Part shown: in pieces, positions 8,573-53,700 of the stretch
How positions within the stretch are numbered: the stretch's first letter is position 1
How the letters are laid out: every line of letters starts with the position of its first letter
Source of the DNA: an uncultured Gammaproteobacteria bacterium
GTDB taxonomy: Bacteria; Patescibacteriota; Microgenomatia; Levybacterales; JACOYD01
Length of the DNA stretch: 64,000 bases
Assembly: GCA_964445095.1 (NCBI GenBank)
Contig: CAYUJR010000002.1
Coordinates: forward strand, 5,176-69,175
Direction of reading: 5' to 3'
Notes under the pieces: generated by a model
Databases searched by the model: none
What the model saw: the letters and a program-made list of their open reading frames with translations, nothing else
Told to the model about the DNA's origin: nothing
Program-made: the position numbers and the translations under genes

Positions 8573-9709
8573 ATGTGGCAGAGCCTCAAAAACATCTATC
8601 ACTTGGCCATGGCGGTGGTGGCTAATTTGTGGTTTGGTTTTCCCTCAAAAAAGCTGACGGTCATTGGCGTGACCGGCACTGACGGTAAGACGACTACTGT
8701 TAACCTCATTTACCATATCTTAAAAACCGCCGGAAAACAGGTTTCGATGATTTCTTCGGTGGGGGCGGTTATTAATAGCAAAAATTATGAGACAGGTTTT
8801 CATGTGACCACTCCCTCTTCCTGGAAACTGCAAAAGTTTATCAAGAAAGCAGAAGGTTATTTAGTTCTCGAAGTTACTTCGCACGCTCTTGACCAGTACC
8901 GTGTTTGGGGCATAGATTTTGCAATTGGGGTACTGACTAATGTTACCAATGAACATCTTGATTACCACAAAACCTGGGAACAATATGTGAAAGTCAAATC
9001 AAAGTTGTTAAAAAACGCCAAGATAGCAATTGTTAATAAAGATGACAACTCCTACGGAGTAATTTCCAATTTCCAATTTCCAATTTCCAATAAATTAATT
9101 ACTTATGGATTAAAAAACTTTTCTTTTAAGACAAAATTGATGGGGGAGTTTAATAAATATAATATTTTGGCGGCGGCGGCGGCGGCAAAGACTTTAGGAA
9201 TAAAAGATCAAGTGATAAAAAAAGCAATAGCCAGTTTCCAATTACCGATTGGCAGGATGGAAGTTGTTTATAACGGCGCGTTTATGGTTATTATTGACTT
9301 TGCTCATACTCCAAACGCCCTAGAGCAAGCTTTATCGACAGTGAAAAAAAATGTTAGTGGTCGGTTAATTCATATTTTTGGTAGTGCTGGAGAAAGAGAT
9401 TTTCAGAAACGGCCGGAAATGGGAAGAGTTTCTAGCAAATACGCAGACATTATTATTTTGACTGCGGAGGATCCACGTTCGGAATCGGTTGATAAGATTA
9501 TCGAAGAGATTGAATCAGGAATTAAAAAGTCAGGAGTTTTGAGGGTTCAAAACAGGCAGGAGGCGATTAATACTGCTATTAAAATGGCCAAAAAAGGAGA
9601 TGTGGTGTTACTTACCGGTAAAGGGCACGAACAGTCGATGAATTATGGTCGGGGGGAGGAGCCGTGGAGTGAACATGAAGCAGTTAAACAAGCACTTAAA
9701 AAAAGTTAA
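8573..9709 (+). CDS. murE: UDP-MurNAc-L-Ala-D-Glu:meso-DAP/L-Lys ligase MurE (short form)
   Basis: GVTGTDGKTTT P-loop and DFAHTPNALEQAL (MurE DNAAHTPDAL-like) motifs. TATAAT at 8559-8564 sits only 8 nt before ATG 8573; the true start could instead be M at 8609. Confidence 0.85.
   Translation: MWQSLKNIYHLAMAVVANLWFGFPSKKLTVIGVTGTDGKTTTVNLIYHILKTAGKQVSMISSVGAVINSKNYETGFHVTTPSSWKLQKFIKKAEGYLVLEVTSHALDQYRVWGIDFAIGVLTNVTNEHLDYHKTWEQYVKVKSKLLKNAKIAIVNKDDNSYGVISNFQFPISNKLITYGLKNFSFKTKLMGEFNKYNILAAAAAAKTLGIKDQVIKKAIASFQLPIGRMEVVYNGAFMVIIDFAHTPNALEQALSTVKKNVSGRLIHIFGSAGERDFQKRPEMGRVSSKYADIIILTAEDPRSESVDKIIEEIESGIKKSGVLRVQNRQEAINTAIKMAKKGDVVLLTGKGHEQSMNYGRGEEPWSEHEAVKQALKKS
9062..9089 (+). repeat. (ATTTCCA)x4 heptanucleotide array, in-frame in murE
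   Basis: Four perfect units. With flanking bases it forms a 30-nt insert encoding ISNFQFPISN. Confidence 0.9.
9169..9186 (+). repeat. (GGC)6 trinucleotide repeat in murE (poly-Ala)
   Basis: GGCGGCGGCGGCGGCGGC encoding AAAAAA. Confidence 0.9.
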
Positions 9710-11099
9710 ACGCATCCATTTTGTCGGGATTAAAGGCGTAGGGGTGGCGCCGTTGGCAATTTACGCCAAACAGGCCGGCGTTATTGTTAGTGGAAGTGAC
9801 ATTGAAGATGAGTTTATTACAGACTTGCCTTTGAAAGAAGCGGGCATATCCTGGACTGTGGGATTTGACTCCAAAGATTTACCTGACAAGTTGGACTTGG
9901 TAATTGCTACCGGTGCTCATGGTGGGATGACTAATTCGCAAGTGGCGGAAGCCAAAAAGCGGGGGATTGCCGTTTGGATGCAGGGCGAGGCAGTGGGTAA
10001 ATTTATGGAGGATTTTTTTGGTATTTCGGTCACCGGTTGCCATGGTAAAACTACCACCGCGGGCATGTTAGCCACGTTACTGGTTAAATCTGGTCTTGAT
10101 CCCTCATATATTGTCGGTTCGGGAACAATCCGGCCCCTCGGAGCGGCCGGACACAAAGGTAGGGGTAGATATTTTATTGCCGAAGCGGACGAGTACGCCA
10201 ATGAACCGACATTTGATAAAACTCCCAAATTTTTATATCAAGACCCCAAAATGATAATTCTCACCAACATTGATTTTGACCATCCGGATTTGTTTAACAG
10301 CATTGATCAAATTAGAGAAAGCATATTAAAATTCTTACAAAAACTGGGTAAAGACGGCGTGGCTATAGTTAATGGCGATGACAGTCAAATTCAAAAAATC
10401 CTTCCCCAGATTGGAGCTAAAGTAATTACTTTTGGCACTACGCCCAAAAATGATTTTTATCTAGCCCGCGTAGGTACCATTCCCGGTAAAACTACCCTTA
10501 ATATTATCAATAAAAATGTCAGTCTGGGTGAGTTCTTGCTTAGTCTGCCGGGAGTTCATAATGCCAAAAATGCCTTGGCGGTGGTGGTGGCGGCTTTGGA
10601 GCTGGGTATTTCTGTAGATAAAATAAAACAATATCTGCCGGTCTTTGCGGGAGCCAAAAGACGGTTTGAGTTAGTCGGTAAGTTAAAAAGCGGCGCCCAA
10701 GTTTACGATGATTACGCTCATCATCCCAAAGAAATTACCGAAACGCTTTTATCTGTCAAGCAATGGTTTCCCAAATCAAGAATAACTGTTATTTTTCAGC
10801 CTCACACTTATTCCAGAACCAAAGCCTTATTTATTGATTTTATCCACGCTTTTTCCCAAGCCGACCAGGTTATTTTTACCAATATTTATCCATCTTTGCG
10901 GGAAGAGCCGGATTTAACAGTTTCCTCTCAAAAACTGGCTGCCTCGACCGGTAAATTTCATCCCAGCGTTAAGTTTTTAGCCCAGCCTCGGGATGTGATA
11001 GAATATATAAACAATCAAGAATGGACGGAGAAAGATTTAATAATGACCATGGGAGCGGGAGACGTGTATAAGATTGCAGAAGCAATCTTGCGCGCATAG
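9675..11099 (+). CDS. murC: UDP-N-acetylmuramate--L-alanine ligase MurC
   Basis: IHFVGIKGVGVAPLA...SGSD N-terminus, GCHGKTTT and DDYAHHP motifs. The ORF is open from 9645; ATG 9675 is chosen and overlaps the murE 3' end. Confidence 0.9.
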   Translation: MKQLNKHLKKVKRIHFVGIKGVGVAPLAIYAKQAGVIVSGSDIEDEFITDLPLKEAGISWTVGFDSKDLPDKLDLVIATGAHGGMTNSQVAEAKKRGIAVWMQGEAVGKFMEDFFGISVTGCHGKTTTAGMLATLLVKSGLDPSYIVGSGTIRPLGAAGHKGRGRYFIAEADEYANEPTFDKTPKFLYQDPKMIILTNIDFDHPDLFNSIDQIRESILKFLQKLGKDGVAIVNGDDSQIQKILPQIGAKVITFGTTPKNDFYLARVGTIPGKTTLNIINKNVSLGEFLLSLPGVHNAKNALAVVVAALELGISVDKIKQYLPVFAGAKRRFELVGKLKSGAQVYDDYAHHPKEITETLLSVKQWFPKSRITVIFQPHTYSRTKALFIDFIHAFSQADQVIFTNIYPSLREEPDLTVSSQKLAASTGKFHPSVKFLAQPRDVIEYINNQEWTEKDLIMTMGAGDVYKIAEAILRA

Positions 11100-11132
11100 C
11101 GCTAAAAATTGCCGATGCAATTTTGTCAAATC

Positions 11133-11153
11133 CTAAATTCTAATTTCTAAATC
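11133..11153 (+). repeat. Three heptamer units CTAAATT-CTAATTT-CTAAATC abutting the murB ATG
   Basis: Occupies the expected SD position. Same ATTTCYA family as the murE array. Confidence 0.8.
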
Positions 11154-12146: not shown

Positions 12147-12157
12147 ATAAGCTCACT

Positions 12158-13480: not shown

Positions 13481-13481
13481 T

Positions 13482-14708: not shown

Positions 14709-15376
14709 AAAAGAAACTAATACTTTTTGATTTGGATAATACTCTTTTTAATTCTGCTTCTTTAAGAGAAGCGATTTTTCTTAAAGTAGGGCAAGTATTG
14801 GCCAGTGATAAAAGTGAGATTGGCATAATAAGCGCCGTTGCTTCACGGATTTATGACGAACTAATGCGGGAGTTTGGCATATTTGATCCAACGCTTTTTT
14901 TGGAAGAAGTATTCAACCAAACCGGTAAGGGTGATGCAAAAGAAAAAAGAGAAATAATTCGTTTTATTATGGATAGAAATACTATCAAGGGACATTTCCA
15001 TAAAGAGGTGATGAATATTTTACTGCAACTATCAAAAATCGGACATTTGGGGATTTATTCCCAGGGAGAGAAAAAATTGCAGCGCCGAAAAATATCTTTT
15101 ATCAAACACTTGTTGCAACCCAAAATAATTCATGTCACTCGAAGTAAAAAATCGCAAATGAGAAGAATTTTTCGAAAATACAATAACTATAAAATATTTT
15201 ATATTGACGATAGATTACCGATGTTACAGCTTGCCAAGGAGATAGGAACAGATGTGGTTGGCGTTTGGGTTAAACGCGGTGGATATGCTAAGATGCAGCA
15301 ACCAATCGCCGGTTTTAAACCTGATGCGCAATTTAGTGATATTAAAAAAATTGTGGAACTAGTTGCTAATTATTAA
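14705..15376 (+). CDS. HAD-superfamily hydrolase/phosphatase
   Basis: ILFDLDNTLF motif I (DxDxT). 4-nt overlap with the upstream gene. Confidence 0.7.
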   Translation: MKKKLILFDLDNTLFNSASLREAIFLKVGQVLASDKSEIGIISAVASRIYDELMREFGIFDPTLFLEEVFNQTGKGDAKEKREIIRFIMDRNTIKGHFHKEVMNILLQLSKIGHLGIYSQGEKKLQRRKISFIKHLLQPKIIHVTRSKKSQMRRIFRKYNNYKIFYIDDRLPMLQLAKEIGTDVVGVWVKRGGYAKMQQPIAGFKPDAQFSDIKKIVELVANY

Positions 15377-15386
15377 TTTCTAATTT
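15366..15386 (+). repeat. Three heptamer units CTAATTA-TTAATTT-CTAATTT abutting the glmS ATG
   Basis: Occupies the expected SD position. Confidence 0.8.
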
Positions 15387-17153
15387 ATGTGTGGAATATT
15401 CGGTTACGTAGGTAAAAAAAATGCCTCCGATGTTGTAATAGCCGGTTTAAAAAGACTGGAATACAGGGGTTATGATTCGTGGGGTATTGCCGTAGTAGCC
15501 GATGAAATAAAACTCAATAAAAAAGTGGGAGCGATCGGAGATATGCTTCCGTCATCCAACTTCCAACTTCCAGCCTCCAACATCGGTATTGGCCACACCC
15601 GCTGGGCTACTCATGGGGGAATCACCGAAACTAATGCTCACCCACATTTTTCCACTGATAAATCTTTTGCCCTAGCCCAAAATGGAATTGTGGAGAATTA
15701 TCAAGTATTAAAAGATGAACTTAAGGAAAGGGGTTACAAATTTTTTACAGAAACAGATACGGAGGTAATTGTCCGGTTAATAGAAGATAAATTGAAGCTA
15801 ATTAAAGACCTGCAGGAAGCTGTCAGAAAAGCTTTTTTGGAGCTTGAAGGTAGAAACACAATTATTATTTTGACTAAGGATGGTCAAATTATTTCTGCCA
15901 GAAATGGTTCTCCCTTGGTGGTTGGAGTTAATCAAAAAGAAGTATTTTTTTCATCCGATACTTTATCTTTTGCGCCATTCGTCAAAAAAGTAATAGTGAT
16001 AGATAATGGCCAGATGGTTTATTATAACGGTAAACTTAATGTAGTAGATATTAAGTCCGGCAAAAGTCTCCAATACCATCTTGAAAAGATCGATTTTAAA
16101 AACAGTAAGGTTGATAAAGAAGGCTACGACCATTTTATGTTAAAAGAAATTCATGAAAGTCCTTATGTGATTGGTCAAGTAATCAATCAAGCTCGTGGCT
16201 TAGACGCTCTTGGTAGAGCTATAAAGAAAGCTAAAACTGTCTACTGCGTCGCTATTGGCACAGCTGGTGGTGCTGCTTCCCAAATAGCCTTCTATTTAAG
16301 GGTTCATTCTGGGATTAAAGCCTTGAGTTTAACGGCAGCTAATGCTCTTGATTATTACCCTTTGTTTACCACAGACGATTTGATCATTAACCCCTCCCAA
16401 TCCGGAGAATCAGCTGATGTTTTGGAGGTTTTGGAAAAAGCTAAAGAAAAGGGAGTAAAAATCGCTTCTTATGTTAATATGCCGGGTTCAACTACGACCA
16501 GAATGTCAGATTTTAAGTTCATGTCTAATGCCGGACCGGAAATTTGCGTGATGTCCACAAAAGTTTATGCTTCTCAAATAGCCTGGGGGTATTTGCTGTC
16601 AAAAGTGGTAAGCAGAAAGCAGGAAGATGGACAGACAAACCTTAAGTCTTTATCTTTGGAGGTGGAAAAGTATTTAAATACCGAAAATAATCACGATTTG
16701 ATAAAAAACCTGGCAAAGGAGCTGGTTAAAAAACAGCACATTTTTCTTCTGGGTAAATACCAAAACTTAAATATAGCTCGCGAAGGTATGATTAAAATTA
16801 TCGAGGGTTCATACATTCATGCTCATGCTATGCCGGCAGGAGACTTAAAGCATTACGCCATTACTCTAATGGAAAAAGGGGTGCCAGTGATTGTAGTAGT
16901 TTCTGAAGATATAGCAAGAGATGATGTGATAAACGCCGTAAATGAGGTCAGAGCCAGAGGGGCTTGGGTAATAGGCATTGCGCCCAAATCACACCCGAGT
17001 TTTGATGTCCATCTACCAGTGCCTAATACAGGGGAAACATCAGCCATCATGAATATAATCCCTTTACAGCTTTTAGCTTATTATATGGCAGTAGAACTGG
17101 GTCACAATGTAGACAAACCCAGAAATATTGCTAAGAGTGTAACAGTCAAATGA
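15387..17153 (+). CDS. glmS: Glutamine--fructose-6-phosphate aminotransferase GlmS
   Basis: MCGIFGYVG Ntn-amidotransferase start with two SIS domains; 588 aa. Three heptamer units precede the ATG. An internal (TCCAACT)-type 4-unit array lies at 15555-15582. Confidence 0.92.
   Translation: MCGIFGYVGKKNASDVVIAGLKRLEYRGYDSWGIAVVADEIKLNKKVGAIGDMLPSSNFQLPASNIGIGHTRWATHGGITETNAHPHFSTDKSFALAQNGIVENYQVLKDELKERGYKFFTETDTEVIVRLIEDKLKLIKDLQEAVRKAFLELEGRNTIIILTKDGQIISARNGSPLVVGVNQKEVFFSSDTLSFAPFVKKVIVIDNGQMVYYNGKLNVVDIKSGKSLQYHLEKIDFKNSKVDKEGYDHFMLKEIHESPYVIGQVINQARGLDALGRAIKKAKTVYCVAIGTAGGAASQIAFYLRVHSGIKALSLTAANALDYYPLFTTDDLIINPSQSGESADVLEVLEKAKEKGVKIASYVNMPGSTTTRMSDFKFMSNAGPEICVMSTKVYASQIAWGYLLSKVVSRKQEDGQTNLKSLSLEVEKYLNTENNHDLIKNLAKELVKKQHIFLLGKYQNLNIAREGMIKIIEGSYIHAHAMPAGDLKHYAITLMEKGVPVIVVVSEDIARDDVINAVNEVRARGAWVIGIAPKSHPSFDVHLPVPNTGETSAIMNIIPLQLLAYYMAVELGHNVDKPRNIAKSVTVK
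15555..15582 (+). repeat. TCCAACT-TCCAACT-TCCAGCC-TCCAACA heptamer array, in-frame in glmS
   Basis: Encodes SSNFQLPASN, close to the murE insert peptide ISNFQFPISN. Confidence 0.9.
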
Positions 17154-22260: not shown

Positions 22261-22267
22261 ATGAAAA

Positions 22268-22597
22268 ATGAGTAAATTTGTTAAAATTGTTGTTTATGTG
22301 CCAGAAAGTCATGCCGATATTATCAGACAAGCTATGGGAAATGCCGGAGCCGGAGTAATTGGCAATTATAGTCACTGCACTTTTTCTATTAAAGGCAAGG
22401 GGAATTATAAACCCCTAGAAGGAGCGAAACCATTTATTGGAGAAGTAGGAAAATTTGAAGAGGTGGAGGAAGAAAGAATAGAAACAGTTTGTCCTCAAAA
22501 AAAAGTTAAAGAGGTAATAGAAGCTATTAAAGAAGTCCATCCGTATGATGAAGTAGCCCTAGATATTTATTCGTTGCTAAGTAAAAAAGATTTATGA
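22268..22597 (+). CDS. Small PII/CutA-like protein related to the insert domain of Nif3 (YqfO)-family proteins
   Basis: 109 aa. The C-terminal EVHPYDEVALDIYSL resembles the HPYEEPAYD signature. Pattern recalled from memory. Confidence 0.35.
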   Translation: MSKFVKIVVYVPESHADIIRQAMGNAGAGVIGNYSHCTFSIKGKGNYKPLEGAKPFIGEVGKFEEVEEERIETVCPQKKVKEVIEAIKEVHPYDEVALDIYSLLSKKDL

Positions 22598-24169: not shown

Positions 24170-24177
24170 ATTTCTTC

Positions 24178-36940: not shown

Positions 36941-37003
36941 TATATTTTGATAGTCTTGACTTATGTGAAAAGTCCTACTAAAATATGCTAGTTTTCACAA
37001 AAG

Positions 37004-37024
37004 TTTCAAATTTTAAATTTCAAT
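37004..37024 (+). repeat. Three heptamer units TTTCAAA-TTTTAAA-TTTCAAT abutting the rpmA ATG
   Basis: Same placement as at murB and glmS. Confidence 0.75.
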
Positions 37025-37276
37025 ATGGCACATACAAAAGCACAAGCAGCCACCAAGGGCAATAGAGATTCAATCTCTAAAAGATTGGGCGTCAAACTTT
37101 TTGGCGGACAAAAGACTTTTCCTGGTAATATCATCATCAGACAACGGGGAAGCAAAGTTCATCCCGGAGAGGGCGTAAGGATGGGGCGGGATTTTACCAT
37201 TTTTGCCGTCAAGGAAGGGCAGATTAATTTTAAAACACATCGTGGACGTGCATTCGTGGAGGTCATAAATGGATAA
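37025..37276 (+). CDS. rpmA: 50S ribosomal protein L27
   Basis: [16 protein letters not shown]...GGQ start, canonical for L27. Three heptamer units (TTTCAAA TTTTAAA TTTCAAT) abut the ATG. Confidence 0.95.
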
Positions 37277-38610: not shown

Positions 38611-38617
38611 ATTAAAA

Positions 38618-39775: not shown

Positions 39776-39864
39776 AGTAAGTTTATATTTCCATAAAAAA
39801 TCCGAAAAGTCAATCGGTAAATTGAGGTTACCTGGCTATTTATGTTAAAATACTAAAAAAAGAT

Positions 39865-39936: not shown

Positions 39937-39946
39937 CCCGCGCTTT

Positions 39947-40936: not shown

Positions 40937-41834
40937 AGAAGAGACAATAGGTGAGCTATTATCGTCAATACTTCAACAATCTGCGTTGCCAGATGAGGTG
41001 ATTGTTGTTGATGGAGGTTCAACTGACCTGACGGTCAGTAATATCAAATATCAAATATCAAATATCAAATATTTCAAAAGCAGATTAAGACCTTTTATTA
41101 AAAAAAGTAATAGGGCAATAGGTAGAAATTACGGGATTTCCAAGGCAAAAAATGAGATTGTCGCTCTCACCGACGCGGGATGCATTCTTGATAAAAATTG
41201 GTTAAAAAATATTACAACTCCATTCGAGAGTACAGAGGTCGATGTCGTTGCCGGATTTTATCAAGGATTACCGAAGAGTATTTTTGAAAAGTGTCTGGTG
41301 CCTTATGCTCTGGTTATGCCCGATAAGGTTAACCCCAAAACATTTCTGCCCGCTTCACGCTCGATGGCGCTGCGACGATCTATTTGGCAAAGGGCTGGTG
41401 GTTTTCCGGAAGAATTTTCAGATAATGAAGATTATGTATTTGCTCATAAATTAAAGAAAATGCATGCCAAAACTGTTTTTCAGAAAAAAGCGGTGGTTTT
41501 TTGGATGCCCAGAAAAAACTTGATAGAAGCTTTTATGATGTTTTTCAAGTTTGCTAAAGGGGATATGGAGGCCCAAATTGTCAGACCAAAGGTAGTATTA
41601 TTATTTCTGCGCTATATAATCGGACTGACTTTGGTTATACTGAGTATAGAAAGAATTTGGTTACCATCATATTTTTTAATACTAGTCACGGTTTATTTAT
41701 TTTGGGCAATTGGGAAAAATTATCGATATGTGGCTGACTGGCGAGCAATTTTTATCTTGCCACTTTTACAGCTAACAGCAGATACATCTGTTTTAACAGG
41801 AAGTATTTATGGGATATACAAAAGAGGCAATTAA
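40902..41834 (+). CDS. GT-A family 2 glycosyltransferase with C-terminal TM segments
   Basis: VSIVVTVLNEE...DEVIVVDGGSTD (GT2 DxD region). Contains an (ATATCAA)4 array at 41041-41075. Confidence 0.75.
   Translation: MKVSIVVTVLNEEETIGELLSSILQQSALPDEVIVVDGGSTDLTVSNIKYQISNIKYFKSRLRPFIKKSNRAIGRNYGISKAKNEIVALTDAGCILDKNWLKNITTPFESTEVDVVAGFYQGLPKSIFEKCLVPYALVMPDKVNPKTFLPASRSMALRRSIWQRAGGFPEEFSDNEDYVFAHKLKKMHAKTVFQKKAVVFWMPRKNLIEAFMMFFKFAKGDMEAQIVRPKVVLLFLRYIIGLTLVILSIERIWLPSYFLILVTVYLFWAIGKNYRYVADWRAIFILPLLQLTADTSVLTGSIYGIYKRGN
41041..41075 (+). repeat. (ATATCAA)x4 plus a degenerate fifth unit, in-frame in a GT2 gene
   Basis: Encodes SNIKYQISNIKYF. Confidence 0.9.
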
Positions 41835-43020: not shown

Positions 43021-43766
43021 TAAGCGCTGTTATTTTAACAAAAAACGAAGAAAAAAATATTGAAGTTTGCTTGAAGAGTCTGGATTTTTGCGATGAGATA
43101 ATCGTGATTGATGATAATTCTGCAGATAAGACGGTGGAGTTAGCAAAAAAATCAAAAGCAAAAGTATTTGCTAGGACGCTTAATAATGATTTTTCTCGTC
43201 AAAGAAATTTTGGATTAGAAAAAGCCCACGAGGAATGGGTATTATTTATTGACGCCGATGAAAGAGTATCTCCATCGCTTTGCGATGAAATAACCCAATT
43301 AACTAATAACCCAATAACCCAATGTAATGGATTCTATATCAAGAGACGAGATTTTATGTGGGAAAATGAGTTAAAGTATGGTGAGACTGGAGATATAAAA
43401 TTATTACGATTAGCCAGAAAGGAAGGGGGCAAATGGGAGGGGAGAGTTCATGAGAAATGGAAAGTTAAAGGTAAACTGGGTGAGCTGAAAAATCTCCTGC
43501 TTCATTATCCTCATCAAACAATTACGGAATTTTTGCGAGAGATAAATTTCTACACCGATATTCGAGCTCAAGAACTTTACGAAAAAGGGACCAGCGTATA
43601 CTGGTGGTCAATTATTCTTTATCCTAAGGTAAAGTTTTTCCGAAACTTTTTTGTCAAAAAAGGTTTTCTTGACGGACTGCCGGGGCTAATCCTGGCTCTA
43701 ATGATGAGTTTTCATTCATTTTTAGTTAGAGGCAAATTATGGTTAATGCAGCAAAAGAAAAACTAG
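43017..43766 (+). CDS. GT-A family 2 glycosyltransferase
   Basis: ISAVILTKNEE...IIVIDDNSADKT, with DAD in FIDADE. Contains short AATAACCC repeats at 43291-43322. Confidence 0.75.
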   Translation: MISAVILTKNEEKNIEVCLKSLDFCDEIIVIDDNSADKTVELAKKSKAKVFARTLNNDFSRQRNFGLEKAHEEWVLFIDADERVSPSLCDEITQLTNNPITQCNGFYIKRRDFMWENELKYGETGDIKLLRLARKEGGKWEGRVHEKWKVKGKLGELKNLLLHYPHQTITEFLREINFYTDIRAQELYEKGTSVYWWSIILYPKVKFFRNFFVKKGFLDGLPGLILALMMSFHSFLVRGKLWLMQQKKN

Positions 43767-44935
43767 TAATTATTCTTATTTTAACTTTGGCTTTAGGGCA
43801 GTTAGTTAGAATACCAATAGAATATCAAGGTCTGCAAAGTATTTATATTACTCCTTTTGATCTGATAGCCGTAATATTAGTGACGTTATGGATTATGAGT
43901 AAGCCAAATCTAGCGCAGGCAGAATTAGCTCAACCGATAGCGATTTTTGCCGGTCTGGCTTTGTTATCCCTAGTAGTTAACGCTAGGAATCTTTTATCAA
44001 ATGAGCTTATCGCCTCTTCTCTTTATTTTTTTCGTTGGTTAATGCTAACTTCTTTATATTTTATAGTAAAAGATTTTACTCTGCAATTTAAGAAAAGGTT
44101 GTTGGGGTGGCTAGTATTGAGCGGGATGTTAGTGGTTTTGGCGGGAATAATTCAATATTTTTTCTACCCTGATTTGCGAAATCTTTATTATGCCGGGTGG
44201 GATGAACATCTTTATCGTGTTTTTTCCACCTTTCTTGACCCTAATTTCGTCGGGGCATTTTTTGTGCTTAATTTTATTCTCATGTTAGTATTAGCTCTAC
44301 ACACCAGGAGTGTAGCCTGGAAATTTAGAATACTAGTTATTGGGGCAGTTTTAACTTTGGTGGCAATTTTACTAACACATAGCAGAAGTGCTTACGTGAT
44401 GTTTTTTGTTACCAATATAATGCTACTTTTACTTACTAAAAAAAAGATGCTTTTGATATTTATGGCGGTTTTTATTATTGGAATAATTCTTTTGCCAAAA
44501 AATTTACCCGGCGAGGGAGTTAATCTCGCTCGGACCGCCTCGGTTGCGGCTCGACAACAAAGCATGGAGCGGGCAGTAAAAATTTGGCAAGACCATCCGT
44601 TATTTGGCGTAGGATTTAATGCCTATCGATATGCACAAAAACAATACGGTTTTTTACCGGAGGATAATTGGCAGACGCTTCATTCCGCGGCAGGAACAGA
44701 TAATAGTTTTCTTTTTGTGGCTTCAACAACCGGAACAGTGGGTTTATTATCCTTTTTTTATTTATGGTACTGGGTAGTAAGACTTACCTGGCGGCAAAAA
44801 CAGAGGCAAATTTCCCAAGTTGTGCTGGTTTTGGTGGTGGGAATTTTAGTTAACAGTCTTTTTATAAATAGCCTTTTTTTTGAAAGTATACTGGCCTGGA
44901 TATGGATACTGGTGGGGATTAGGGAGAAAAATTGA
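43739..44935 (+). CDS. O-antigen ligase/polymerase-family membrane protein (Wzy_C/WaaL-like)
   Basis: Polytopic. Carries a THSRSAYV loop motif typical of the O-antigen ligase domain. Confidence 0.6.
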   Translation: MVNAAKEKLVIILILTLALGQLVRIPIEYQGLQSIYITPFDLIAVILVTLWIMSKPNLAQAELAQPIAIFAGLALLSLVVNARNLLSNELIASSLYFFRWLMLTSLYFIVKDFTLQFKKRLLGWLVLSGMLVVLAGIIQYFFYPDLRNLYYAGWDEHLYRVFSTFLDPNFVGAFFVLNFILMLVLALHTRSVAWKFRILVIGAVLTLVAILLTHSRSAYVMFFVTNIMLLLLTKKKMLLIFMAVFIIGIILLPKNLPGEGVNLARTASVAARQQSMERAVKIWQDHPLFGVGFNAYRYAQKQYGFLPEDNWQTLHSAAGTDNSFLFVASTTGTVGLLSFFYLWYWVVRLTWRQKQRQISQVVLVLVVGILVNSLFINSLFFESILAWIWILVGIREKN

Positions 44936-45629
44936 CTTTTCTTTCCAAAGACGTTTCGTTGCCGGCCGGGTCAAGAGATTTTATATTAATGATATTTTCC
45001 CCATTAGTCAGTTTAAAGAGATAAGAAAATTTACCCTCGCTATCGACAATTGCCCGAAAGTCATTAACAGTCACGGTTGAGTCGACATCGGTTTTTCCTC
45101 TCACTTCAACCGTATTTTCTCCGCCGGCAAAGGATTGATTTGATGTTGGGTTGGTAACCTCAAGCATGGGCCCAGTATCATCAAAAATGACGGTTTGTTC
45201 CGGCGAAAAATCACTGGTATTATCGTTGTCGCGCGTCCTGGCTTTAATTGAATTCTGTCCGCTGTTAAGCTTAAGACTGGCAATTTCAAATTTACCAACG
45301 TGGTCTGATTTAATTGTATTGACAAGACTATTGCCCACAAAAACTTCTATTTCTTTATCTGTAATTGCTAAACCACTAATTTTGATGGTAGCGGAATTAG
45401 TAGCTATGGGGAGCGGGTCAAGCTGTGGCGGCTGGATAAATGATGGTTTATCAGATTGAGTTTGAATGTTTGACTGTCCAATTTGGGCAAGCAGCGGTAT
45501 ACCAAGTTTAAAAATGGCAATGATAATCAGAATAGTTCCGGCTACAGTCAATATAAAATTTCTTTTACTTTGCTTTTCTACTTTCCGTAGGATTCGCGAG
45601 CGATTGCGCCTCATATTAGCTACTCCCAT
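44919..45629 (-). CDS. Membrane-anchored protein with Ig-like beta-sandwich repeats
   Basis: Signal-anchor (FILTVAGTILIIIAIF) followed by Thr/Asn/Val-rich repeats typical of Big-like domains. Confidence 0.5.
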   Translation of the reverse strand: MGVANMRRNRSRILRKVEKQSKRNFILTVAGTILIIIAIFKLGIPLLAQIGQSNIQTQSDKPSFIQPPQLDPLPIATNSATIKISGLAITDKEIEVFVGNSLVNTIKSDHVGKFEIASLKLNSGQNSIKARTRDNDNTSDFSPEQTVIFDDTGPMLEVTNPTSNQSFAGGENTVEVRGKTDVDSTVTVNDFRAIVDSEGKFSYLFKLTNGENIINIKSLDPAGNETSLERKVNFSP

Positions 45630-47146
45630 TCCATGGTGGCTGGTGGTTTAGTAGTTATATCATACACTACCCGAGAAATTCCCTCAACCTCGCTGGTTAA
45701 GCGTGAGGTAATTTTTTGCAGCAGCTGGTAGGGAACTTTACCCCAGTCTGCCGTCATGCGATCTTTAGAAGTAACTAGGCGGAGTGCTACTACCTCGCCT
45801 AAAAAGCGGCCATCCCCCTTAACGGAAGTACTGTTAACTCCCGTAAGAACGGGAAAAGAATGAAGAAGTTTTTTATACCAACCGGCTTTTTTAACTTCCT
45901 CGACTACAATTTGGTCTGCTTGTTGAGCTAGTAAAAGACGAATAGGCGTAACCTCTCCCATAATGCGAATGGCAAAGCCGGGACCTGGATGTGGTTGTTG
46001 GTTTATTATTTCTGGAGGAATTGCCAATTTTTTGGCCAGCTGTCGGACTTGGTCGGTATACAAAAAGCGGATTGGTTCTAGTAATTTAAGTTTAAGATTT
46101 TTTGGTAGACCCCCTACATTATGATGAGACTTAATATTGACAGCATTTTTTGTTCCTTTACTTTCGATCACATCAGAGTAAATGGTTCCCTGGACTAAAA
46201 AGTCAACGTTTTTGTATCTTTTAATCACCTGCTGAAATAAATCGATGTAAAGCTTGCCAATGCGTTTTCGCTTTTCTTCCGGATCAGCTACTCCTTTCAG
46301 CGTTTTTAAAAAGACATCCTCTTTTTTAAGAATAATAGGTATGAGGTCAAGCTTACTTTGAAAAAAATCTTTTACTCTTTCGGTTGTACCTGTTCGCATT
46401 AGCCCACTGTCGACGTAGACTGGCAGGAGTCGCTTGCCAATAGCTCGAGCCACCAAGGTAGCGGCCACTGTCGAATCCAGTCCGCCTGACACTGCCGCCA
46501 GAGCCCGAGAGCTACCGACGTCTTTTTTAATTTTGTTGATAATACTCTGGAGATCGATAGAGTATTTAGTAGTGGTAACTTGACAAACGTGTTCTAAAAA
46601 ATTTTTTAAAATAAGCAGGCCGTGTTCCGTATGCTCAACTTCGGGATGGAATTGCACTCCATAAATTCGCCGTTGTTCGTTGGCCATGACCGTACCCTGG
46701 ATGCGGTCCGACTGACCAATAAAGCTAAAGCCGGGCGGGGGCAGAACTACCTCATCACCATGGCTCATCCAGATACGGGAGTGAGGGGAAATAGAATCTA
46801 GCAGAGGAGAAGAGAGATTAATTTTTAAGGTGGCTGGTCCATCTTCCCGCACTTTTCCCCGCCTAACTTTTCCTCTCAATAGATGAGCGATTAGTTGCTG
46901 GCCATAGCAAATTCCCAGAATGGGAATACCCAGGGTAAAAATTTTCCTCTCAAGGGTAGGTGCGCCTTTTTCATAGACCGAAGCAGGACCGCCGGATAAA
47001 ATAATTCCCTGGGGTTTTATTTTCTTGATTTGAGTTAAGGCTTGTTCCGGTTCAATAATAGAGACAGTTGCGCCTAGCTCTTTAATTCGGCGGGCGATTA
47101 AGTGGCAGGTTTGGGAACCAAAATCAACAACAACTATCATAGACAA
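45620..47146 (-). CDS. guaA: GMP synthase (glutamine-hydrolysing) GuaA
   Basis: Class I GATase N-domain (ICYGQQL Cys). SGGLDSTV PP-loop. 508 aa. Confidence 0.92.
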   Translation of the reverse strand: MSMIVVVDFGSQTCHLIARRIKELGATVSIIEPEQALTQIKKIKPQGIILSGGPASVYEKGAPTLERKIFTLGIPILGICYGQQLIAHLLRGKVRRGKVREDGPATLKINLSSPLLDSISPHSRIWMSHGDEVVLPPPGFSFIGQSDRIQGTVMANEQRRIYGVQFHPEVEHTEHGLLILKNFLEHVCQVTTTKYSIDLQSIINKIKKDVGSSRALAAVSGGLDSTVAATLVARAIGKRLLPVYVDSGLMRTGTTERVKDFFQSKLDLIPIILKKEDVFLKTLKGVADPEEKRKRIGKLYIDLFQQVIKRYKNVDFLVQGTIYSDVIESKGTKNAVNIKSHHNVGGLPKNLKLKLLEPIRFLYTDQVRQLAKKLAIPPEIINQQPHPGPGFAIRIMGEVTPIRLLLAQQADQIVVEEVKKAGWYKKLLHSFPVLTGVNSTSVKGDGRFLGEVVALRLVTSKDRMTADWGKVPYQLLQKITSRLTSEVEGISRVVYDITTKPPATMEWE

Positions 47147-48777
47147 TTTCGCAAGAATTCAATAAAAATTGGGTGAGGCGACAGCGGTCTGCTTTTATAT
47201 TCGGGATGTCCTTGAGTACCAAGATAAAAGGGGTGGTTGGGGATTTCGATAATTTCTGCCAAGTTTTCTACCACCGAGCGAGCAGAAATAATCAGGCCAT
47301 TTTTTTCAAAAAGAGAGGTAAACTTATCATTAAATTCATAGCGATGTCGGTGTCTCTCGCTGGTTAAGCCGGTCTTCTTGTTTAAGAACGCATCGTTCTT
47401 ATTATAAATATCCCAAGTTAGCGTCCCCCTTTTAACTACTGCCTGCCAGGCGCCCAGCCTCATGGTACCGCCATAAGCGCGATGTTCCATAAACTTTTTT
47501 TGGGCCGGCATCAGATGAATAACAGGATGAGAAGTTTTTGGATCGTTTTCCGTAGTGTTGGCATCCTCGAGGTTTAATACATCGCGAGCAAAAGAGATAA
47601 CTGCCAACTGCATGCCGTAGCAAAGACCTAAATAGGGGATTTTTTTATCACGGGCAAAGCCGGCGGCCTTAATCATTCCTTCCGCTCCTCGCTCTCCCCA
47701 GCCAATCGGTACAATTATGCCATCAACTTTTCCTAAAGACTCTTCTGGTTTAAACACTTTTTCTGCATCCACCCAGTGGGTTTTTAAATTGATGTTGTGA
47801 TATAGGGCGCCGTGAGACAGAGCGTCAAAAAGAGCGGCGTAAGAATCGCGTAACTGATAATTGCCAGTGCCAAAATATTTGCCGACAATGGCAATCTCGA
47901 CTGTTTTATTTTTTGGGCTGTTAATTTTTTCGACTAATTTTACCCAACTGGTTAAAGCCGGTTTTTTAAAAGGCAGGCCCAGTTTCCGGCAAATTTTGCT
48001 GTCTAAATTCTGCTCTCGCAGTTGTAGCGGAATTTTATAAACAGAGGAAACATCGGGGCTCGAAATAATATCATCTTCATGCATATTACAAAATAAGGCA
48101 AAGCGCTGCCTTCGGCGTAAATCTAAATACCGGTCAGAACGAGCGATGATAAAATCCGGTTGAATTCCCATAGAATTGAGCGTCTTGACAGACAGTTGGG
48201 TAGGTTTGGTTTTGGGCTCGCCCAGATGCGGCGGCGTCGGCACATAACTGACATGAACATGAATGACATCTCGGGGGTTTTTTAAGGTTAAAATTCTGGC
48301 AGCCTCATAGTATAAGGCATTTTGATATTCTCCCACGGTTCCGCCGAGTTCAATAATGACGATTTGCATACCTTTACCAGCCCGATTAATTCTTCTCTTA
48401 ATCTCGTCGGTAACATAGGGAATGGCCTCCACATCCTCCCCTTGATATTCAAAGGCCCGTTCTTTATCAATCACCGTTTTATAAATTTGACCCATGGTAA
48501 CAAAATTATTTTCTCCCATATTTTCATTAAGAAATTTTTCATAACTGCCAATATCCATGTCTGTTTCCGTACCGTCCTCGCATAGAAATGGGTCGCCATG
48601 TTCAATGGGGTTGATAGTACCGGCATCTAAATTTAGATAATTTTCAAACTTTACGGGGGCGATTTTAAATCCGGCACTTTTTAAAAGAAGTGCGATAGAG
48701 GCGGTGGTGATTCCCTTACCAATACCAGAGATTACTCCACCGGAAACAAAAATGTACTTAAGGTTTTCGCGCGGCAT
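47137..48777 (-). CDS. pyrG: CTP synthase PyrG
   Basis: KYIFVSGGVISGIGKGITTAS start and a C-terminal GATase with GLCYGMQ. Confidence 0.95.
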   Translation of the reverse strand: MPRENLKYIFVSGGVISGIGKGITTASIALLLKSAGFKIAPVKFENYLNLDAGTINPIEHGDPFLCEDGTETDMDIGSYEKFLNENMGENNFVTMGQIYKTVIDKERAFEYQGEDVEAIPYVTDEIKRRINRAGKGMQIVIIELGGTVGEYQNALYYEAARILTLKNPRDVIHVHVSYVPTPPHLGEPKTKPTQLSVKTLNSMGIQPDFIIARSDRYLDLRRRQRFALFCNMHEDDIISSPDVSSVYKIPLQLREQNLDSKICRKLGLPFKKPALTSWVKLVEKINSPKNKTVEIAIVGKYFGTGNYQLRDSYAALFDALSHGALYHNINLKTHWVDAEKVFKPEESLGKVDGIIVPIGWGERGAEGMIKAAGFARDKKIPYLGLCYGMQLAVISFARDVLNLEDANTTENDPKTSHPVIHLMPAQKKFMEHRAYGGTMRLGAWQAVVKRGTLTWDIYNKNDAFLNKKTGLTSERHRHRYEFNDKFTSLFEKNGLIISARSVVENLAEIIEIPNHPFYLGTQGHPEYKSRPLSPHPIFIEFLRNCL

Positions 48778-48847
48778 GATTTATCATAACAAAAACAACA
48801 AAAATAGTCAAGAGAAAAAAACCAAGGGATCAGAGGTGTTTAGACAT

Positions 48848-49537
48848 TTATTTACTTAAAATTTCAGAATGCATTACTCTAAAGGCCTGTGAGCTTCCGT
48901 CTTTAACAAATATTTCGGGTATCACTCCTAAGGGGGAAAGAGAAAGACTCTGCTTATGATAATCTACTTTAGTAGGTATACCATGGAGCGGAACACTAAA
49001 AGACCCACCAGCTTCTGATTCTAAAGCTGCCGTTACCCCTCCATTAGTAGCTGGTACGTTTATATATGGTTTGCCATCAATTAAAATATTTTCTAGATTT
49101 CTCTTGTCGTTCAAATACACTGCCGTAAAATTGCCGTCCAAACCTGATCGATAAATCAACCACGCTTGCCCTTTTTGATGATCAATTGCTTCCCAGGGGT
49201 TATTAACGATCTCTACTAAAGTACCACTGCCGCCTTTGTATCCCACAGCGGGACCAGTTTGAATATCATCTGAATATGCTGGGGAAGCAAACCATCTTAA
49301 TCTTGTAGCTCCTTTATTAATTGTCACAACTCCTCTAACTATTTCTAATGGTTGTCCAGGTTTTATCCTTTCTCTCATTAGTTCTTGAAATCTAATTGCT
49401 TCTGGGGGTAATTGTTCTTCCTGACGATATGCAAGACATGATGTCACTAGCAACGGAGAAACTACAACTAAACTACCTCCTAGTGAGAGTTTTTGTAAAA
49501 ATTTTCTTCGTGTGCTTCCGCGTTCCAACACCTGCAT
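48848..49537 (-). CDS. Hypothetical exported protein with twin-arginine signal peptide
   Basis: STRRKFLQKLSLGG matches the S/T-R-R-x-F-L-K Tat consensus. Confidence 0.55.
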   Translation of the reverse strand: MQVLERGSTRRKFLQKLSLGGSLVVVSPLLVTSCLAYRQEEQLPPEAIRFQELMRERIKPGQPLEIVRGVVTINKGATRLRWFASPAYSDDIQTGPAVGYKGGSGTLVEIVNNPWEAIDHQKGQAWLIYRSGLDGNFTAVYLNDKRNLENILIDGKPYINVPATNGGVTAALESEAGGSFSVPLHGIPTKVDYHKQSLSLSPLGVIPEIFVKDGSSQAFRVMHSEILSK

Positions 49538-49595
49538 AAGTAGAAGTATTATATCACACTATATCACATCTTGTCAAATAAAATGGTTATTGGCC

Positions 49596-50780
49596 TCATT
49601 TTAACTCAAAAGGTACTCTCACCATAGAATGAGGATTATCCCATATTCCTCGAGAGTAGACCAAAACTCCAGTTCTATCCGTAATTTGATCTGTAGGTTT
49701 ATTTAAAGACCAAAGGCTCGGATTACTGGCCCATAACTGACCTCTTTTATGAGGATATTGCCCTTGAGGAAATTTTAAGATAAGCTTAGCCTCGTCCCAG
49801 GTTAAACCATCGTTTGAAGTAGTTACGCAAAATCCAACATGCGTTTCAAAAACAGCCAGGTATTTACCTAAATAGGTATTATAGCTTACACTAGGGAGTG
49901 CGGCATACCCACTCTCCGCTATATCGGCTGGTATAGGAATAACTGGTGATACAGTAGTGGGGGAAACTTCAACTCCTTTTTGAAAACCATTTTTTGTATA
50001 ATGTTCGAAGGCTCCAACATTATCCCCTTTTACCTCTGTTCTAGAAAGGTGAATTTGATATTCTCGCCCTTCATGAGAAGGCCAATAAATATAATAAACA
50101 TAGACAAATCGCTTATCCCCTTCCTCTTTAATAATCGCACAAGGTTGACCTACTCCAGTAACATTTTTTCCAGGTTGTAATGCATCAGCTGCTTTTAAAG
50201 CAACTCCTTTATCCAACCAATTTTTTCCTCCATCAACTGATTCTAAAATACCAATAGTACTCGTGAAGTTACGATAATCTAAAGAACCATCTCTATTTGC
50301 CCATTGTTCATTGTGGGTTATCCCAAAAAGATGATTAGGATTTTCCTTGTTTAACTGAAGGATGCTTGTAATTGCAGTATATCCATTTCTATATTCCCCC
50401 CCCCTATCAGGGCCAACCACAGGTATGGCTTGTCCTTGCTGGTTACGTTCTCTTGGTATAAATAGACTTCCTTTATCTTCTAGCATGGCGAACGAAGCTG
50501 CATTTCCAGAAACATAATATTCCCGCCTTCCATCGGGAAAAGTTATATAAGGAATATGGCCGTCGGGAGTCCAGTTGATACCATATTTTGACAGCTGAAT
50601 TGGTTCCTCTTTACCAAGCATCATCAAATCATTTTCCGGAGTTTCAAATCCTCCTCTGGTTGACCGTTCATTAACAAGCAGTGCGCCTCGTCCTAGAGCA
50701 ACAGCTCCCAATCCAATCGCTCCCCATTTAATTGCAGTTCGTCGAGTTATTTGAAGTCGTTTAGGTGTATCTTCTGCCAT
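49596..50780 (-). CDS. Tat-signal exported protein, beta-propeller/glycosidase-like (function unknown)
   Basis: ITRRTAIKWGAIGLGAVALG Tat-type leader. Rich in W/Y/G, as in propeller folds. Confidence 0.45.
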   Translation of the reverse strand: MAEDTPKRLQITRRTAIKWGAIGLGAVALGRGALLVNERSTRGGFETPENDLMMLGKEEPIQLSKYGINWTPDGHIPYITFPDGRREYYVSGNAASFAMLEDKGSLFIPRERNQQGQAIPVVGPDRGGEYRNGYTAITSILQLNKENPNHLFGITHNEQWANRDGSLDYRNFTSTIGILESVDGGKNWLDKGVALKAADALQPGKNVTGVGQPCAIIKEEGDKRFVYVYYIYWPSHEGREYQIHLSRTEVKGDNVGAFEHYTKNGFQKGVEVSPTTVSPVIPIPADIAESGYAALPSVSYNTYLGKYLAVFETHVGFCVTTSNDGLTWDEAKLILKFPQGQYPHKRGQLWASNPSLWSLNKPTDQITDRTGVLVYSRGIWDNPHSMVRVPFELK

Positions 50781-53700
50781 ATTTTATTAAATACATTATA
50801 GCCGATATTATGAGCAATAGAAAGCCTAGATACTCGAGGTATTGGGGAAGATAAAGAATGACGAGGCTGGAAGCTGGAGGCTGGAAGCTGGAATTATTCA
50901 GCACCCATCCATTAGCCCAGTTGTTAACTAGGACGTGGTTTTTAATTTCTCTACCAAACACCATTGGTAGTATTTGACATTTGACATTTGACATTTGACA
51001 TTGATACGCTTTCCATCCTGTGTCATAAGACTGGGAAAGAACAAGGACGGGATTATTAATTGTTAAATTGTTAAATTGCTCAATTGTTATGGAATAAAGA
51101 CTGGGGTTGGGGTGATTGACCTCGAGCTCGGTTAATCTGACAGGAAACTGGTTAGTGCTTGATTTTTTCAAAACCAGACCGGTTAGGAATTTATAGGGGA
51201 TGGGGTTGACAGTAATTTTACCCAGTTCATTAGTGGATTTTTCTTTACCGATTGAGACATTGTCAAAATGGAGGACGTATCCTACCCCGTCTTTTTCCAT
51301 GGGAGGCTGGATAAAATAGCTAGACGCTAAATGCTTGCTGCTAGACGCTGGTAAATAAGTTTCAATGTCGGCACGTCTCGAGTTGGGGTTTTCCAGCCAA
51401 AAAAGAATAGGGCGACCAGAGATGTTTTTAGTTTCCGCTGTAATAAGGTAGGCCATGTCATGCGTCAAATTGGGTAGATTAAAAGCGGTACAGTTACTGT
51501 TATTTATTAACGTCAATCGCAAGAAGCCGCGGACAACATTGTCGCAATTGACAGTAGTCGGTTCAATCTCGGCACTGAAGTAGCCGCCGGCTTTGGGAAC
51601 TTTGACCTCGATATTTTTGCCGTCAAAAAAGACATCAAGCGGCACGGTTTTTGTTTGAGACAAGTCATTGGGGTCAACCCAGGTTAAGATTTGACTACTT
51701 GGTGGTGGCACTTCTAAAACATAGTTGTCGCTACCGGCAGGTAGAGTTTTACTAAAGGCAAAATAATCGCCCCTGTCTTCTACCGTAAATTCTAAATCTT
51801 GTTGGCTCCTGCCCGTAAATAAACTCCTAAATGGATAGTAAAAACTGGAAGCTGGAGATTGGATGCTAGAAGCTAGATAATAACCATTATCATTAAAGGC
51901 GCGGTCGTAATTATTCCATTTGTAAATGGGGCCGGTAGTAGCGAGATTTTCTGCCAAAAAGACAAAGTTGTTAACCGGCGCTTCAAGATTTACTCGATAA
52001 ACTTTAATTTTGCCTGCTTGCGCAGGCGAGCCGAATTGTTGGGTTAGGGTGACTTTATTTGAATTTTTAAGCGTCTCTTCCAATTCATCCAGATAAAGCG
52101 CCTTGGAAGAGGGAGGATTAATAATATTTTCATCAACCAGCAGCCACCTGATTTGATATTTTTCAAGGACATTTTCAAGTAACGCAGGATTTTTAGAATA
52201 AACAGCATAAGAAGCTTCCCAATAATAATTCTCATTATATGGAGACCACCGGTCAAATTCCCGATCGAGCAACGGTTGTTTTAAACCAAACCACAAAAAT
52301 CCTGCACCTTCATACTGCCAATCATAGTAAGCCCAGCCCCAAAAAGTATGGACGGGAAATTCGGCAATTCTGCCTGTTGTTTCCTGCTTGTTTAACCAGT
52401 TAAACATAGCAAAATACTCCTTTGGTATTTGTACTTTCATGCTATGACTGATTAAGTTTCCTTTAAATGCTGGCCACATATAATAAACAAGGGCAATTAA
52501 TATAGTTAAAGCTTGTAGTAAATAAAGTATTCGTTCTTTTTTTACCCTTTTAATTAATAGTCCAGTTAGCCAATTCAAGGCAACTGCAAAATAAACGGTG
52601 TAAGCAAAGAGTAGTAAAATAGAAAATTTAGTAAAGGGAAAGCGGAGAGCCTCTCTAAAAAAGGGGACCTCATTTTGTAAAAAGGCAAAAATTTCTCTAA
52701 AAAGCGGCAGATCATTAGCAATAAATAAAAACGAGACAATAAAAACAGGTAAAATTGCTAAACCATACTTTTCTTGTCTGCGAAATACTATAGCTATTCC
52801 TCTTAAAACTAAAGTAAAAATACCGTAAGCAATAAAATTTGCAATCGGGCTATTTAGATGTGGAGTCCACTCATCAAATAAACTAATAGATTCTTGTTTT
52901 TTGTCATCATATTCTCCCCAGTCAAATAAAAAGTTTTTCAAAATTGCCGTGTCTTTGATGGTGCCAAATTGTCTGCCAGTTAAAAAAGCTTTTTCCGAGA
53001 ATTGAGTATGAATTTTTGAGTCGACTACATCCTTGCCGTGACTTGCAACAAAATAAATATTAGGCAATAACCAGAAGCTATTTAATACGAGAGTGGTCAG
53101 TAGAATTAACAAAGCTCGCCGAATAGTCTCCTTGAAAGAGAAAAAGGCTAAAGTACTAATATATAATAGTAAACCCAAAAAATAGGCATAAAAAAGCGTG
53201 GCGGTGTGGGCCATAGAGGTTGACAGAATAGTTATTAATGAGAAAAATATCAGATTTCTGCTTGTTCCATTCTCTAAATATTTACTGGTAAAAAGAAATA
53301 GCCAGGGAAGGGTGGCAAAGTGGGTGGCAAACATCTCCAGCGGTACATAATAATGTTGAAGGGTAGCTAGATTTAAAAGATATAGCAGAGCTCCACTAAA
53401 AGCGGCTGTTTGGCCAGCTATGCGGGGCAAGTTTTTTAAAATAACCCGTTCTAGAAAAAAGTAAGTCCCCAGCGTGCCAGCAATTAGAGTCAAGAAAAAA
53501 TAGCCGTAGCGCAAAAATGAGTCGGGAAGAATAAGCGAAGATAAATAATAAATAAACATTCGGGGAAGCTCCGAAGCATGGGCTTGCGAAGCAACAGCCC
53601 CCAGTCCTTGATGTTCTTGCCAAACACCAAAGAAAATTCGTTTAAAATAAAGTCCAAAGTCAAACTCCGGATGTAGCGTATCCCAACCGGAAAGATAAGT

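Follow-up and report, generated by a model that had tools for sequence, protein, structure and literature searches.

Heptanucleotides form the most abundant class of long simple-sequence repeats (SSRs) in most of the prokaryotic genomes surveyed by Mrazek, Guo and Shah in 2007, as this survey is cited in PMC4679880 and PMC4692102. According to the same two papers, a polymerase contact of about 7 nucleotides (nt) favouring slippage was proposed as their origin (Mrazek 2007), and repeats inside genes are cited from it as having units which are mostly multiples of three (via PMC4679880). Here, heptanucleotide arrays are described in a 64,000-nt stretch of DNA (hereafter the window; positions 5,176 to 69,175 of contig CAYUJR010000002.1, assembly GCA_964445095.1), which lie inside the genes of a Mur ligase of the MurE type with 378 amino acids (aa), of GlmS, of a GT2 glycosyltransferase and of a 1010-aa membrane protein. 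With the long SSRs, as far as they are described in the citing papers, these arrays share head-to-tail units of 7 nt and the over-representation of period 7 compared to neighbouring periods. In contrast to what is cited from that survey, which predates the genomes of the Candidate Phyla Radiation (CPR), they are found mostly in genes, essential ones included, and are quantised to one or four units.

A preference for four units was described for the GGGNATC and GGGGA(C/T)T repeats of Xanthomonas and Nostoc and attributed to G-quadruplexes (Rehm et al. 2015, PMC4692102). GGAAATT, the complement of AATTTCC, matches GGGAATC at five of seven positions, but the GGGNATC repeats are rich in G, mainly found in non-coding DNA and depleted on coding strands, whereas the arrays described here are AT-rich, mostly without G-tracts and mostly coding. 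A G-quadruplex, for which four tracts of at least three G on one strand are needed, cannot be formed by them, since the complements of AATTTCC, AATATCA and AATGTCA contain at most GG or a single G. In E. coli K1, neuO contains (AAGACTC)n with 3-53 units; it switches frequently, and the OFF state is found in 65.6% of genomes (PMC13001214). Common to neuO and the arrays are a heptamer repeat within an open reading frame (ORF), the full-length protein being given by one residue class of the copy number modulo 3, and the translation into a seven-residue repeat; the arrays here differ in having four units, in being always in frame and in residing in essential genes. TAACTGA repeats occur in Beggiatoaceae, Cyanobacteria and Bacteroidetes with 2-6 copies, many directly upstream of start codons and some in ORFs (PMC4679880), and cyanobacterial STRR heptamers are cited for Calothrix PCC 7601 (in PMC4692102). 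The TAACTGA repeats likewise form lineage-wide heptamer arrays, and the intergenic arrays of the window at murB, glmS and an ORF at 37025 look similar. The TAACTGA repeats differ by one dominant unit with stop codons in all frames and a mainly intergenic position, whereas many stop-free and mainly coding units are found here. No report of such heptamer arrays in CPR or Patescibacteria was found in the literature.

Rickettsia palindromic elements (RPEs) are palindromic mobile elements of about 100-150 bp with a conserved full-length sequence. They are comparable to the arrays as short repeats in frame inside unrelated functional protein genes, where they give rise to peptide segments in tolerant regions, and a preliminary description of the window had likened the arrays to them. 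However, self-complementarity or a fold is lacking: no hairpin or palindrome was found in the arrays (minimum free energy 0 to -3.2 kcal/mol, z-scores -0.76 to +0.63 compared to shuffled sequences). No naive empty site, i.e., a site without any unit, was found in the orthologue comparisons; at the only clean empty site (in the MurE gene), a unit is still present and the difference is 21 nt compared to a tract of 30-31 nt. The RPE-like interpretation was thus abandoned. The arrays are best explained as heptanucleotide SSRs made in place and not as inserted elements.

Anatomy, abundance and copy number of the arrays

In the ORF of the MurE-like ligase (8573-9709), a perfect array (AATTTCC)x4 + AAT of 31 nt is located at 9061..9091 on the + strand and encodes the peptide ISNFQFPISN. 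The glmS ORF (15387-17153) carries a decayed four-unit array at 15551..15580 (+; GTCATCC AACTTCC AACTTCC AGCCTCC AA; peptide SSNFQLPASN), and the GT2 ORF (40902-41834) a perfect array of 33 nt, (AATATCA)x4 + AATAT, at 41040..41072 (+; peptide SNIKYQISNIKY). Three arrays are situated on the - strand in the gene for the 1010-aa protein (50761-53793), a multi-pass membrane protein without a Pfam match: an imperfect four-unit array at 50863..50896 (sense TAATTCC AGCTTCC AGCCTCC AGCTTCC AG; peptide NSSFQPPASS), a perfect one of 31 nt at 50972..51002 (sense (AATGTCA)x4 + AAT; peptide CQMSNVKCQ) and a degenerate one of about five units of the TTCCAGC type at 51846..51877 (peptide LASSIQSPASSF). All arrays listed in the preliminary description are present, each is carried by the sense strand of its ORF, and all ORFs are continuous; heptanucleotide arrays in frame in unrelated genes are real. 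They lie at codons 163, 55, 46, 641, 931 and 967 and are not concentrated at 5' ends.

The coding arrays of the window share a phase, as had been noticed before: the units are related and begin with AA (or AG), and a tract consists of four units and the opening dinucleotide of a fifth. The core anatomy is (AA-N5)x4 + AA, which gives 30 nt. The earlier description is right in that the periodic tract is about 30 nt long, but the tracts of the window comprise 30-33 periodic nt (four units plus 2-5 nt) and the glmS array is decayed.

Perfect arrays of at least three units were counted in the window for periods 4-12, which gave three arrays for period 7 and none for every other period. When an identity of ≥ 85% was allowed, four arrays were observed compared to none in 30 dinucleotide-preserving shuffles; a shuffled control had been proposed beforehand for a genome-wide count, and a chance origin of the window arrays is excluded. 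In 79 related Microgenomates loci (1.18 Mb), perfect arrays of at least three units numbered 13 for period 7, two for period 8, one for period 6 and none for periods 5 and 9-12. With mismatches allowed (1.27 Mb), 46 arrays were found for period 7, followed by 10 (period 6), 6 (period 8), 4 (period 9), 2 (period 5) and none (periods 10-12). The counts for period 4 were high, but at chance level. Since the excess of period 7 is also seen in these related loci, it is lineage-wide and no quirk of the window. Head-to-tail 7-nt units, an excess over base composition and other periods, and copy differences of whole units between relatives identify the arrays as members of the heptanucleotide simple-repeat class, in which they are set apart by being mostly coding, free of stop codons, quantised to one or four units and present in essential genes.

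At least 120 metagenome contigs carry (ATTTCCA)x4, 80 of which were analysed. None of these 80 matches has a tract of 28 or 29 nt, while 29 have exactly 30 nt; 28 of the latter read exactly (AATTTCC)x4AA, which confirms that four units plus two bases are a real regularity. This exact 30-mer with the same left boundary is contained in at least 60 of the 80 matches, and tracts exceeding 30 nt mostly have this left boundary too and are extended rightward only. Each of the three sense frames of the block is used (ISNFQFPIS, FPISNFQFP, NFQFPISNFQ), and so is the antisense strand (WKLEIGN). The contigs carrying the block range from 28 to 64% GC, and clusters of different heptamer arrays are frequent. 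Some metagenomic contigs, several of them with 55-64% GC, contain far longer arrays (80 nt of ATTTCCA; 84 and 73 nt of TCGTCAT), long or clustered cases being L140 11266-11321, L119 836-991, L152 and L177 8422-8493. Arrays beyond the four-unit class thus exist, apparently in non-coding DNA.

The copy number of perfect repeats was determined for eight unit types in 1.30 Mb of DNA not selected for any particular unit. The 9-nt string of one unit plus 2 nt was found 23-111 times per type. After subtraction of the contribution of longer arrays, two units occurred 0-4 times, three units 0-1 times and four units 0-2 times per type, and five units plus 2 nt not at all. Hence, the perfect copy number is bimodal, one or four, and two- and three-unit states are nearly absent. 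Histograms of perfect-run length, blurred by point mutations, reveal no more than a hump around 24-36 nt, and the census per unit is cleaner. No array of six or more units was found in the first Microgenomates set (1.27 Mb).

The effect of the arrays on the reading frame was surveyed for 272 arrays in 2.08 Mb. Continuous ORFs hold 182 of these, and a further 87 were found in non-coding DNA or at the end of a gene or contig; no gene is interrupted by an array. Three candidates for a frame switch turned out to be ordinary gene junctions, so that no frame break is seen among the 185 arrays in or at genes.

Comparison of orthologous sites and encoded peptides

The nearest homologues of the window genes are encoded in metagenome-assembled genomes of Candidatus Daviesbacteria and Levybacteria (Microgenomates, CPR), to which GlmS of the window has ≤ 77% and MurE ≤ 73% identity. 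A close strain was not found for the exact MurE, GT2 and membrane proteins, the nearest ones having 64-73% identity. Among these relatives, only the MurE comparison yields a clean empty site. Locus L080 reads GGA GTG ATT TCC AAT AAA, and the window has the same sequence with (ATTTCCA)x4; both are exactly 21 nt apart and the flanks are colinear. The empty site of L080 retains a single unit, ATTTCCAAT, compared to (ATTTCCA)4AT in the window. On the protein level, the orthologue P0003 has GVIS-NKFITYG where the window has GVISNFQFPISNKLITYG. The arrays had been described as inserts of ten codons, which does not hold, because array-free orthologues differ by seven codons (21 nt) and the MurE empty site keeps one unit.

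In GlmS of the relatives, two sites vary by the same amount: site A is longer by exactly 7 aa in L024 and L020 compared to L016, L018 and others, and site B by exactly 7 aa in L016 and L021 compared to L018. The length differences at the two sites and the one in MurE are independent of each other. The GT2 orthologue P0148 is exactly 7 aa shorter, but the DNA sequences do not allow this 21-nt deletion to be assigned to the array without ambiguity. The array of the window glmS itself aligns residue for residue with MLAQAAEEHPLHGG of E. coli GlmS, and the array segment of GT2 has about the same length in array-free orthologues; neither represents a net insertion, and the inserts claimed for GlmS and GT2 were discarded. 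The arrays as such are lineage-specific, as had been suspected.

At the same site, the unit differs between lineages. The glmS loop contains different heptamer-periodic DNA in several clades, of the TTCCAAC, CTACCAW or AACTCTT type, and variant or decayed arrays are found in this loop in close relatives, e.g., (A[AT]CTACC)x4 in L002. The GT2 site carries (AATATCA)x4 in the window, L083 and L086 and (ATTTCCA)x4 in L085. In the 1010-aa protein, the three heptamer arrays are located in hypervariable loops, for which the closest orthologue has other heptamer-derived peptides: P0242 shows NYQLSTINYQL at the loop of 50863-50896 and TYNLQPTTYNL at the loop of 51846-51877. All four copies have changed together between orthologous sites, which argues for repeated collapse to one unit and subsequent re-expansion.

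An AGTA flank, which precedes three arrays when the + strand is read, was considered as a signal and rejected, since it lies on opposite sides relative to sense and is not conserved in the GT2 orthologues.

GC-rich mini-insertions of 21 and 30 nt (CGCCTCGCGGCGAAGCGGGCA; CCCGGCCTCGCTCCGCGAAGCGGGGCGGGC) were observed in frame within heptamer arrays at L057 4045-4137 (MurE loop) and at glmS site A of L028 (~10100-10210). They encode SPRGEAG and PGLAPRSGAG, and similar peptides ('SGQ', 'RQAQGKL') are found in other loops of MurE orthologues. These mini-insertions look like a second family of tiny in-frame repeats, which may target the arrays.

Translation passes through all three frames of a heptamer array, and the seven cyclic codons of its unit must consequently be free of TAA, TAG and TGA. 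For a unit starting with an A-run in an AT-rich genome, T is barred before the A-run and TG is barred before A, which forces the pattern A-run, T-run, C (or CG). The stop-free family observed comprises AATTTCC, AATTTCA, AATATCA, AATGTCA, AAATTCG, AACTTCC, AACTACC and others. Similar units and recurring peptides (ISNFQFP, ISNIKYQ, MSNVKCQ) are best explained as convergent and not as homologous motifs, because heptamer arrays within genes must lack stop codons in all frames. As products of a DNA repeat, recurring peptides such as ISNFQFP, ISNIKYQ, TTNYQLP and WKLEIGN can mislead homology searches and alignments in CPR.

Protein structures were predicted using AlphaFold2. For the MurE-like ligase (mean pLDDT 85.8), the peptide of the array was modelled as a coil, flanked by helix 160-164 and strand 174-178. 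In the model of GT2 (mean pLDDT 93.9), array residues 46-57 are part of the helices 44-54 and 56-61 with a pLDDT of 84-93; this helix of the GT-A fold comes after the DGGSTD motif. In the peptides ISNIKYQ and MSNVKCQ, heptad positions a and d are hydrophobic. The conversion of a 7-nt repeat into a seven-residue repeat may be the reason why an array can stand in for an amphipathic helix in the modelled GT2, and in variable surface loops (MurE, membrane protein) the encoded seven-residue repeats are tolerated. The arrays show how very small, streamlined genomes can rewrite, time and again, loops and even a structural helix of essential enzymes (MurE, GlmS and a GT-A glycosyltransferase) with peptides of seven-residue periodicity.

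Origin of the arrays

The observations to be accounted for are the tract anatomy, the differences of 21 nt, the census of one versus four units, the units changed in concert and the lack of any frame break. The explanation which fits them best, and which we consider rather likely, is reiterative slippage or realignment at AA-N5-AA seeds together with a reading-frame filter and cycles of collapse and re-expansion. The seed would be a resident proto-repeat of 9 nt, i.e., one 7-nt unit with its first two bases, usually AA, recurring right after it. During replication or repair synthesis, the 3' end would realign on this seed and the unit would be copied again. In a mostly coding genome, and with 7 not being divisible by 3, only changes of three units (21 nt, seven codons) would survive, and the visible states would be one unit or four units, the latter as (unit)x4 + AA with 30 nt. 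Since about 85% or more of the genome is coding and changes by one or two units cause a frameshift, states of 1 and 1 + 3 units are what is expected to be seen. Arrays would fall back to one unit and expand anew, so that the four copies of a locus would stay identical to each other although the unit changes from lineage to lineage (concerted evolution). That slippage is the enzymatic cause is inferred from the anatomy of the tracts, and the three units would be gained in one step.

Several points weigh against slippage. A microhomology of 2 nt is a very weak slippage substrate. In essential genes, three units would have to be gained at once or in quick succession, as intermediates of two or three units are frameshift nulls. 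The AATTTCC 30-mer has the same boundaries in dozens of contexts not related to each other, which resembles a defined product and not random seeds. Non-coding arrays in the loci studied here also have four to five units, and four units are likewise preferred in the mostly non-coding GGGNATC repeats of Xanthomonas and Nostoc, to which a frame filter is inapplicable (PMC4692102). At GlmS sites A and B, a single-unit seed is not recognisable in array-free relatives at the present divergence. Furthermore, the slippage model does not account for period 7 being favoured over periods 5 and 8.

These weak points keep alive a rival explanation based on a dedicated activity. The four-unit tract would then be a defined 30-nt cassette, (AA-N5)x4AA, i.e., a very small mobile or enzymatically written element generated by reiterative copying of a 9-nt template and written at many sites. 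Such a cassette could be written by, e.g., a polymerase, primase or reverse transcriptase which realigns on the terminal AA in the manner of telomerase; the frame would be kept, since 30 is a multiple of 3, and all frames are open. The block shared by most of the analysed metagenome matches, with one left boundary, in all frames, in both orientations and on contigs of very different GC content, is what such a cassette would look like, and the AA(TTTCCAA)n structure is the expected remnant of synthesis by template realignment. The preference for four units in non-coding arrays, here as well as in Xanthomonas and Nostoc (PMC4692102), and the common clusters of different heptamer arrays point in the same direction. 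However, three independent orthologue cases show +21 nt and not +30 nt, and the cleanest empty site retains exactly one unit. In addition, the units vary between loci and orthologues with all four copies changing together, for which local re-synthesis and not a fixed template is needed. An enzyme or template acting as the writer did not come to light, but no search aimed at one was made. A cassette is regarded as improbable. Equally improbable, in our judgement, is the related proposal that the four-unit tract is not a by-product of the frame filter but the product of a specific reiterative-synthesis activity, which would re-copy the 9-nt AA-N5-AA template a fixed number of times. If this were true, the activity would underlie the four-unit preference in Xanthomonas, Nostoc and CPR alike, and it would be a general generator of protein segments with seven-residue periodicity, heptad-like helices included, even in essential enzymes.

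With dozens of arrays per megabase, filled and empty sites exactly three units apart and a fixed anatomy, CPR genomes constitute a clean natural experiment, and they bear on the reason for the dominance of heptanucleotides reported in 2007 as well as on the reason for the four-unit preference reported in 2015.

A selected function, either cis-acting or of the peptide, appears more doubtful still. The arrays could serve as a platform for a nucleic-acid-binding protein (of the cold-shock or S1 type, one heptamer per domain), as an unstructured leader enhancing translation or as a peptide motif. In agreement with such a role, intergenic arrays end 0-3 nt from a start codon, both in the window (at murB, glmS and the ORF at 37025) and in relatives (L080 12533-12563, L009 5774-5806, L065 7206-7243, L044 4083-4113 and L062 1396-1431), and the arrays are G-poor and unstructured as RNA. 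At the murF/murB junction, the position of the array is kept between the window and L080, in which (GTYAAAA)x4 GTT directly precedes the murB ATG with units differing from those of the window. On the other hand, the intergenic spacers are so short that any intergenic array must be near a start or stop codon. Unit sequences vary widely among loci and lineages, coding arrays are used in every frame and in antisense, and gain and loss between close orthologues follow no pattern in gene function.

Phase variation had been suggested in the preliminary description. The gain or loss of one unit would frameshift a gene and thereby turn the expression of the surface glycosyltransferase and of membrane proteins on or off, a mechanism known from neuO of E. 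coli K1. This is in keeping with a heptamer not being a multiple of 3, with the envelope-related genes of GT2 and the 1010-aa protein and with the neuO precedent for switching by coding heptanucleotides (PMC13001214). Phase variation is nevertheless very unlikely and would at most apply to the genes of GT2 and the 1010-aa protein. The same arrays reside in the essential, cytoplasmic MurE and GlmS, for which switching off would be lethal, and the tracts are short, with four units compared to 3-53 in neuO with its many OFF genomes. Moreover, two- and three-unit states are nearly absent, arrays are not clustered at 5' ends and none of the 185 arrays in or at genes breaks a frame.

Intergenic and octanucleotide arrays and further features of the window

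The preliminary description had missed three decayed intergenic arrays adjoining start codons and two four-unit arrays with units of 8 nt. The first intergenic array, GTCAAAT CCTAAAT TCTAATT TCTAAAT C, is located at 11124..11153 (+) and ends directly at the murB ATG (11154). The second, TTGCTAA TTATTAA TTTCTAA TTT at 15359..15386 (+), ends at the start codon of glmS (15387). The third has three units, GTTTCAA ATTTTAA ATTTCAA T, at 37003..37024 (+) and ends at the ATG (37025) of a small ORF starting with MAHTKAQAA, which presumably resembles ribosomal protein L27. Arrays adjoining a start codon in this way occupy the place expected for a Shine-Dalgarno sequence.

One of the 8-nt arrays, AATAACCC AATTAACT AATAACCC AATAACCC AAT, i.e., four units plus 3 nt, lies at 43289..43323 (+) inside the ORF 43017-43766. 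The other has four units of the (AACAATTT)x4 type (sense AACAATTG AGCAATTT AACAATTT AACAATTA) and lies at 51058..51089 (-) in the gene for the 1010-aa protein. Both are consistent with the frame rule of 1 + 3 units for any period not divisible by 3. The gene for the 1010-aa protein hosts four separate repeat arrays, three heptamer arrays and one octamer array. A few homologues of its product carry PF10131 (PTPS_related) or PF11847, and one is named '6-pyruvoyl-tetrahydropterin synthase-related'.

The alignment of the MurE-type ligase (8573-9709) starts at residue 89 of Thermotoga MurE (4bub); the N-terminal domain is absent from the protein of the window and from all close orthologues (364-455 aa). 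Its ORF overlaps the next Mur ligase ORF (9645-11099) by 65 nt. The same gene contains a (GGC)x6 run at 9169-9186, which encodes AAAAAA where the orthologues have AAxAAC.

The gene orientation changes from + to - at about 44.9 kb (window ~44900-50000), and the sense orientation of the arrays matches the gene orientation on either side of this switch. The rise of the cumulative GC skew ends at about 44-48 kb, and the skew stays near its maximum until about 56 kb. The convergent gene arrangement at about 44.9 kb may mark a replication terminus.

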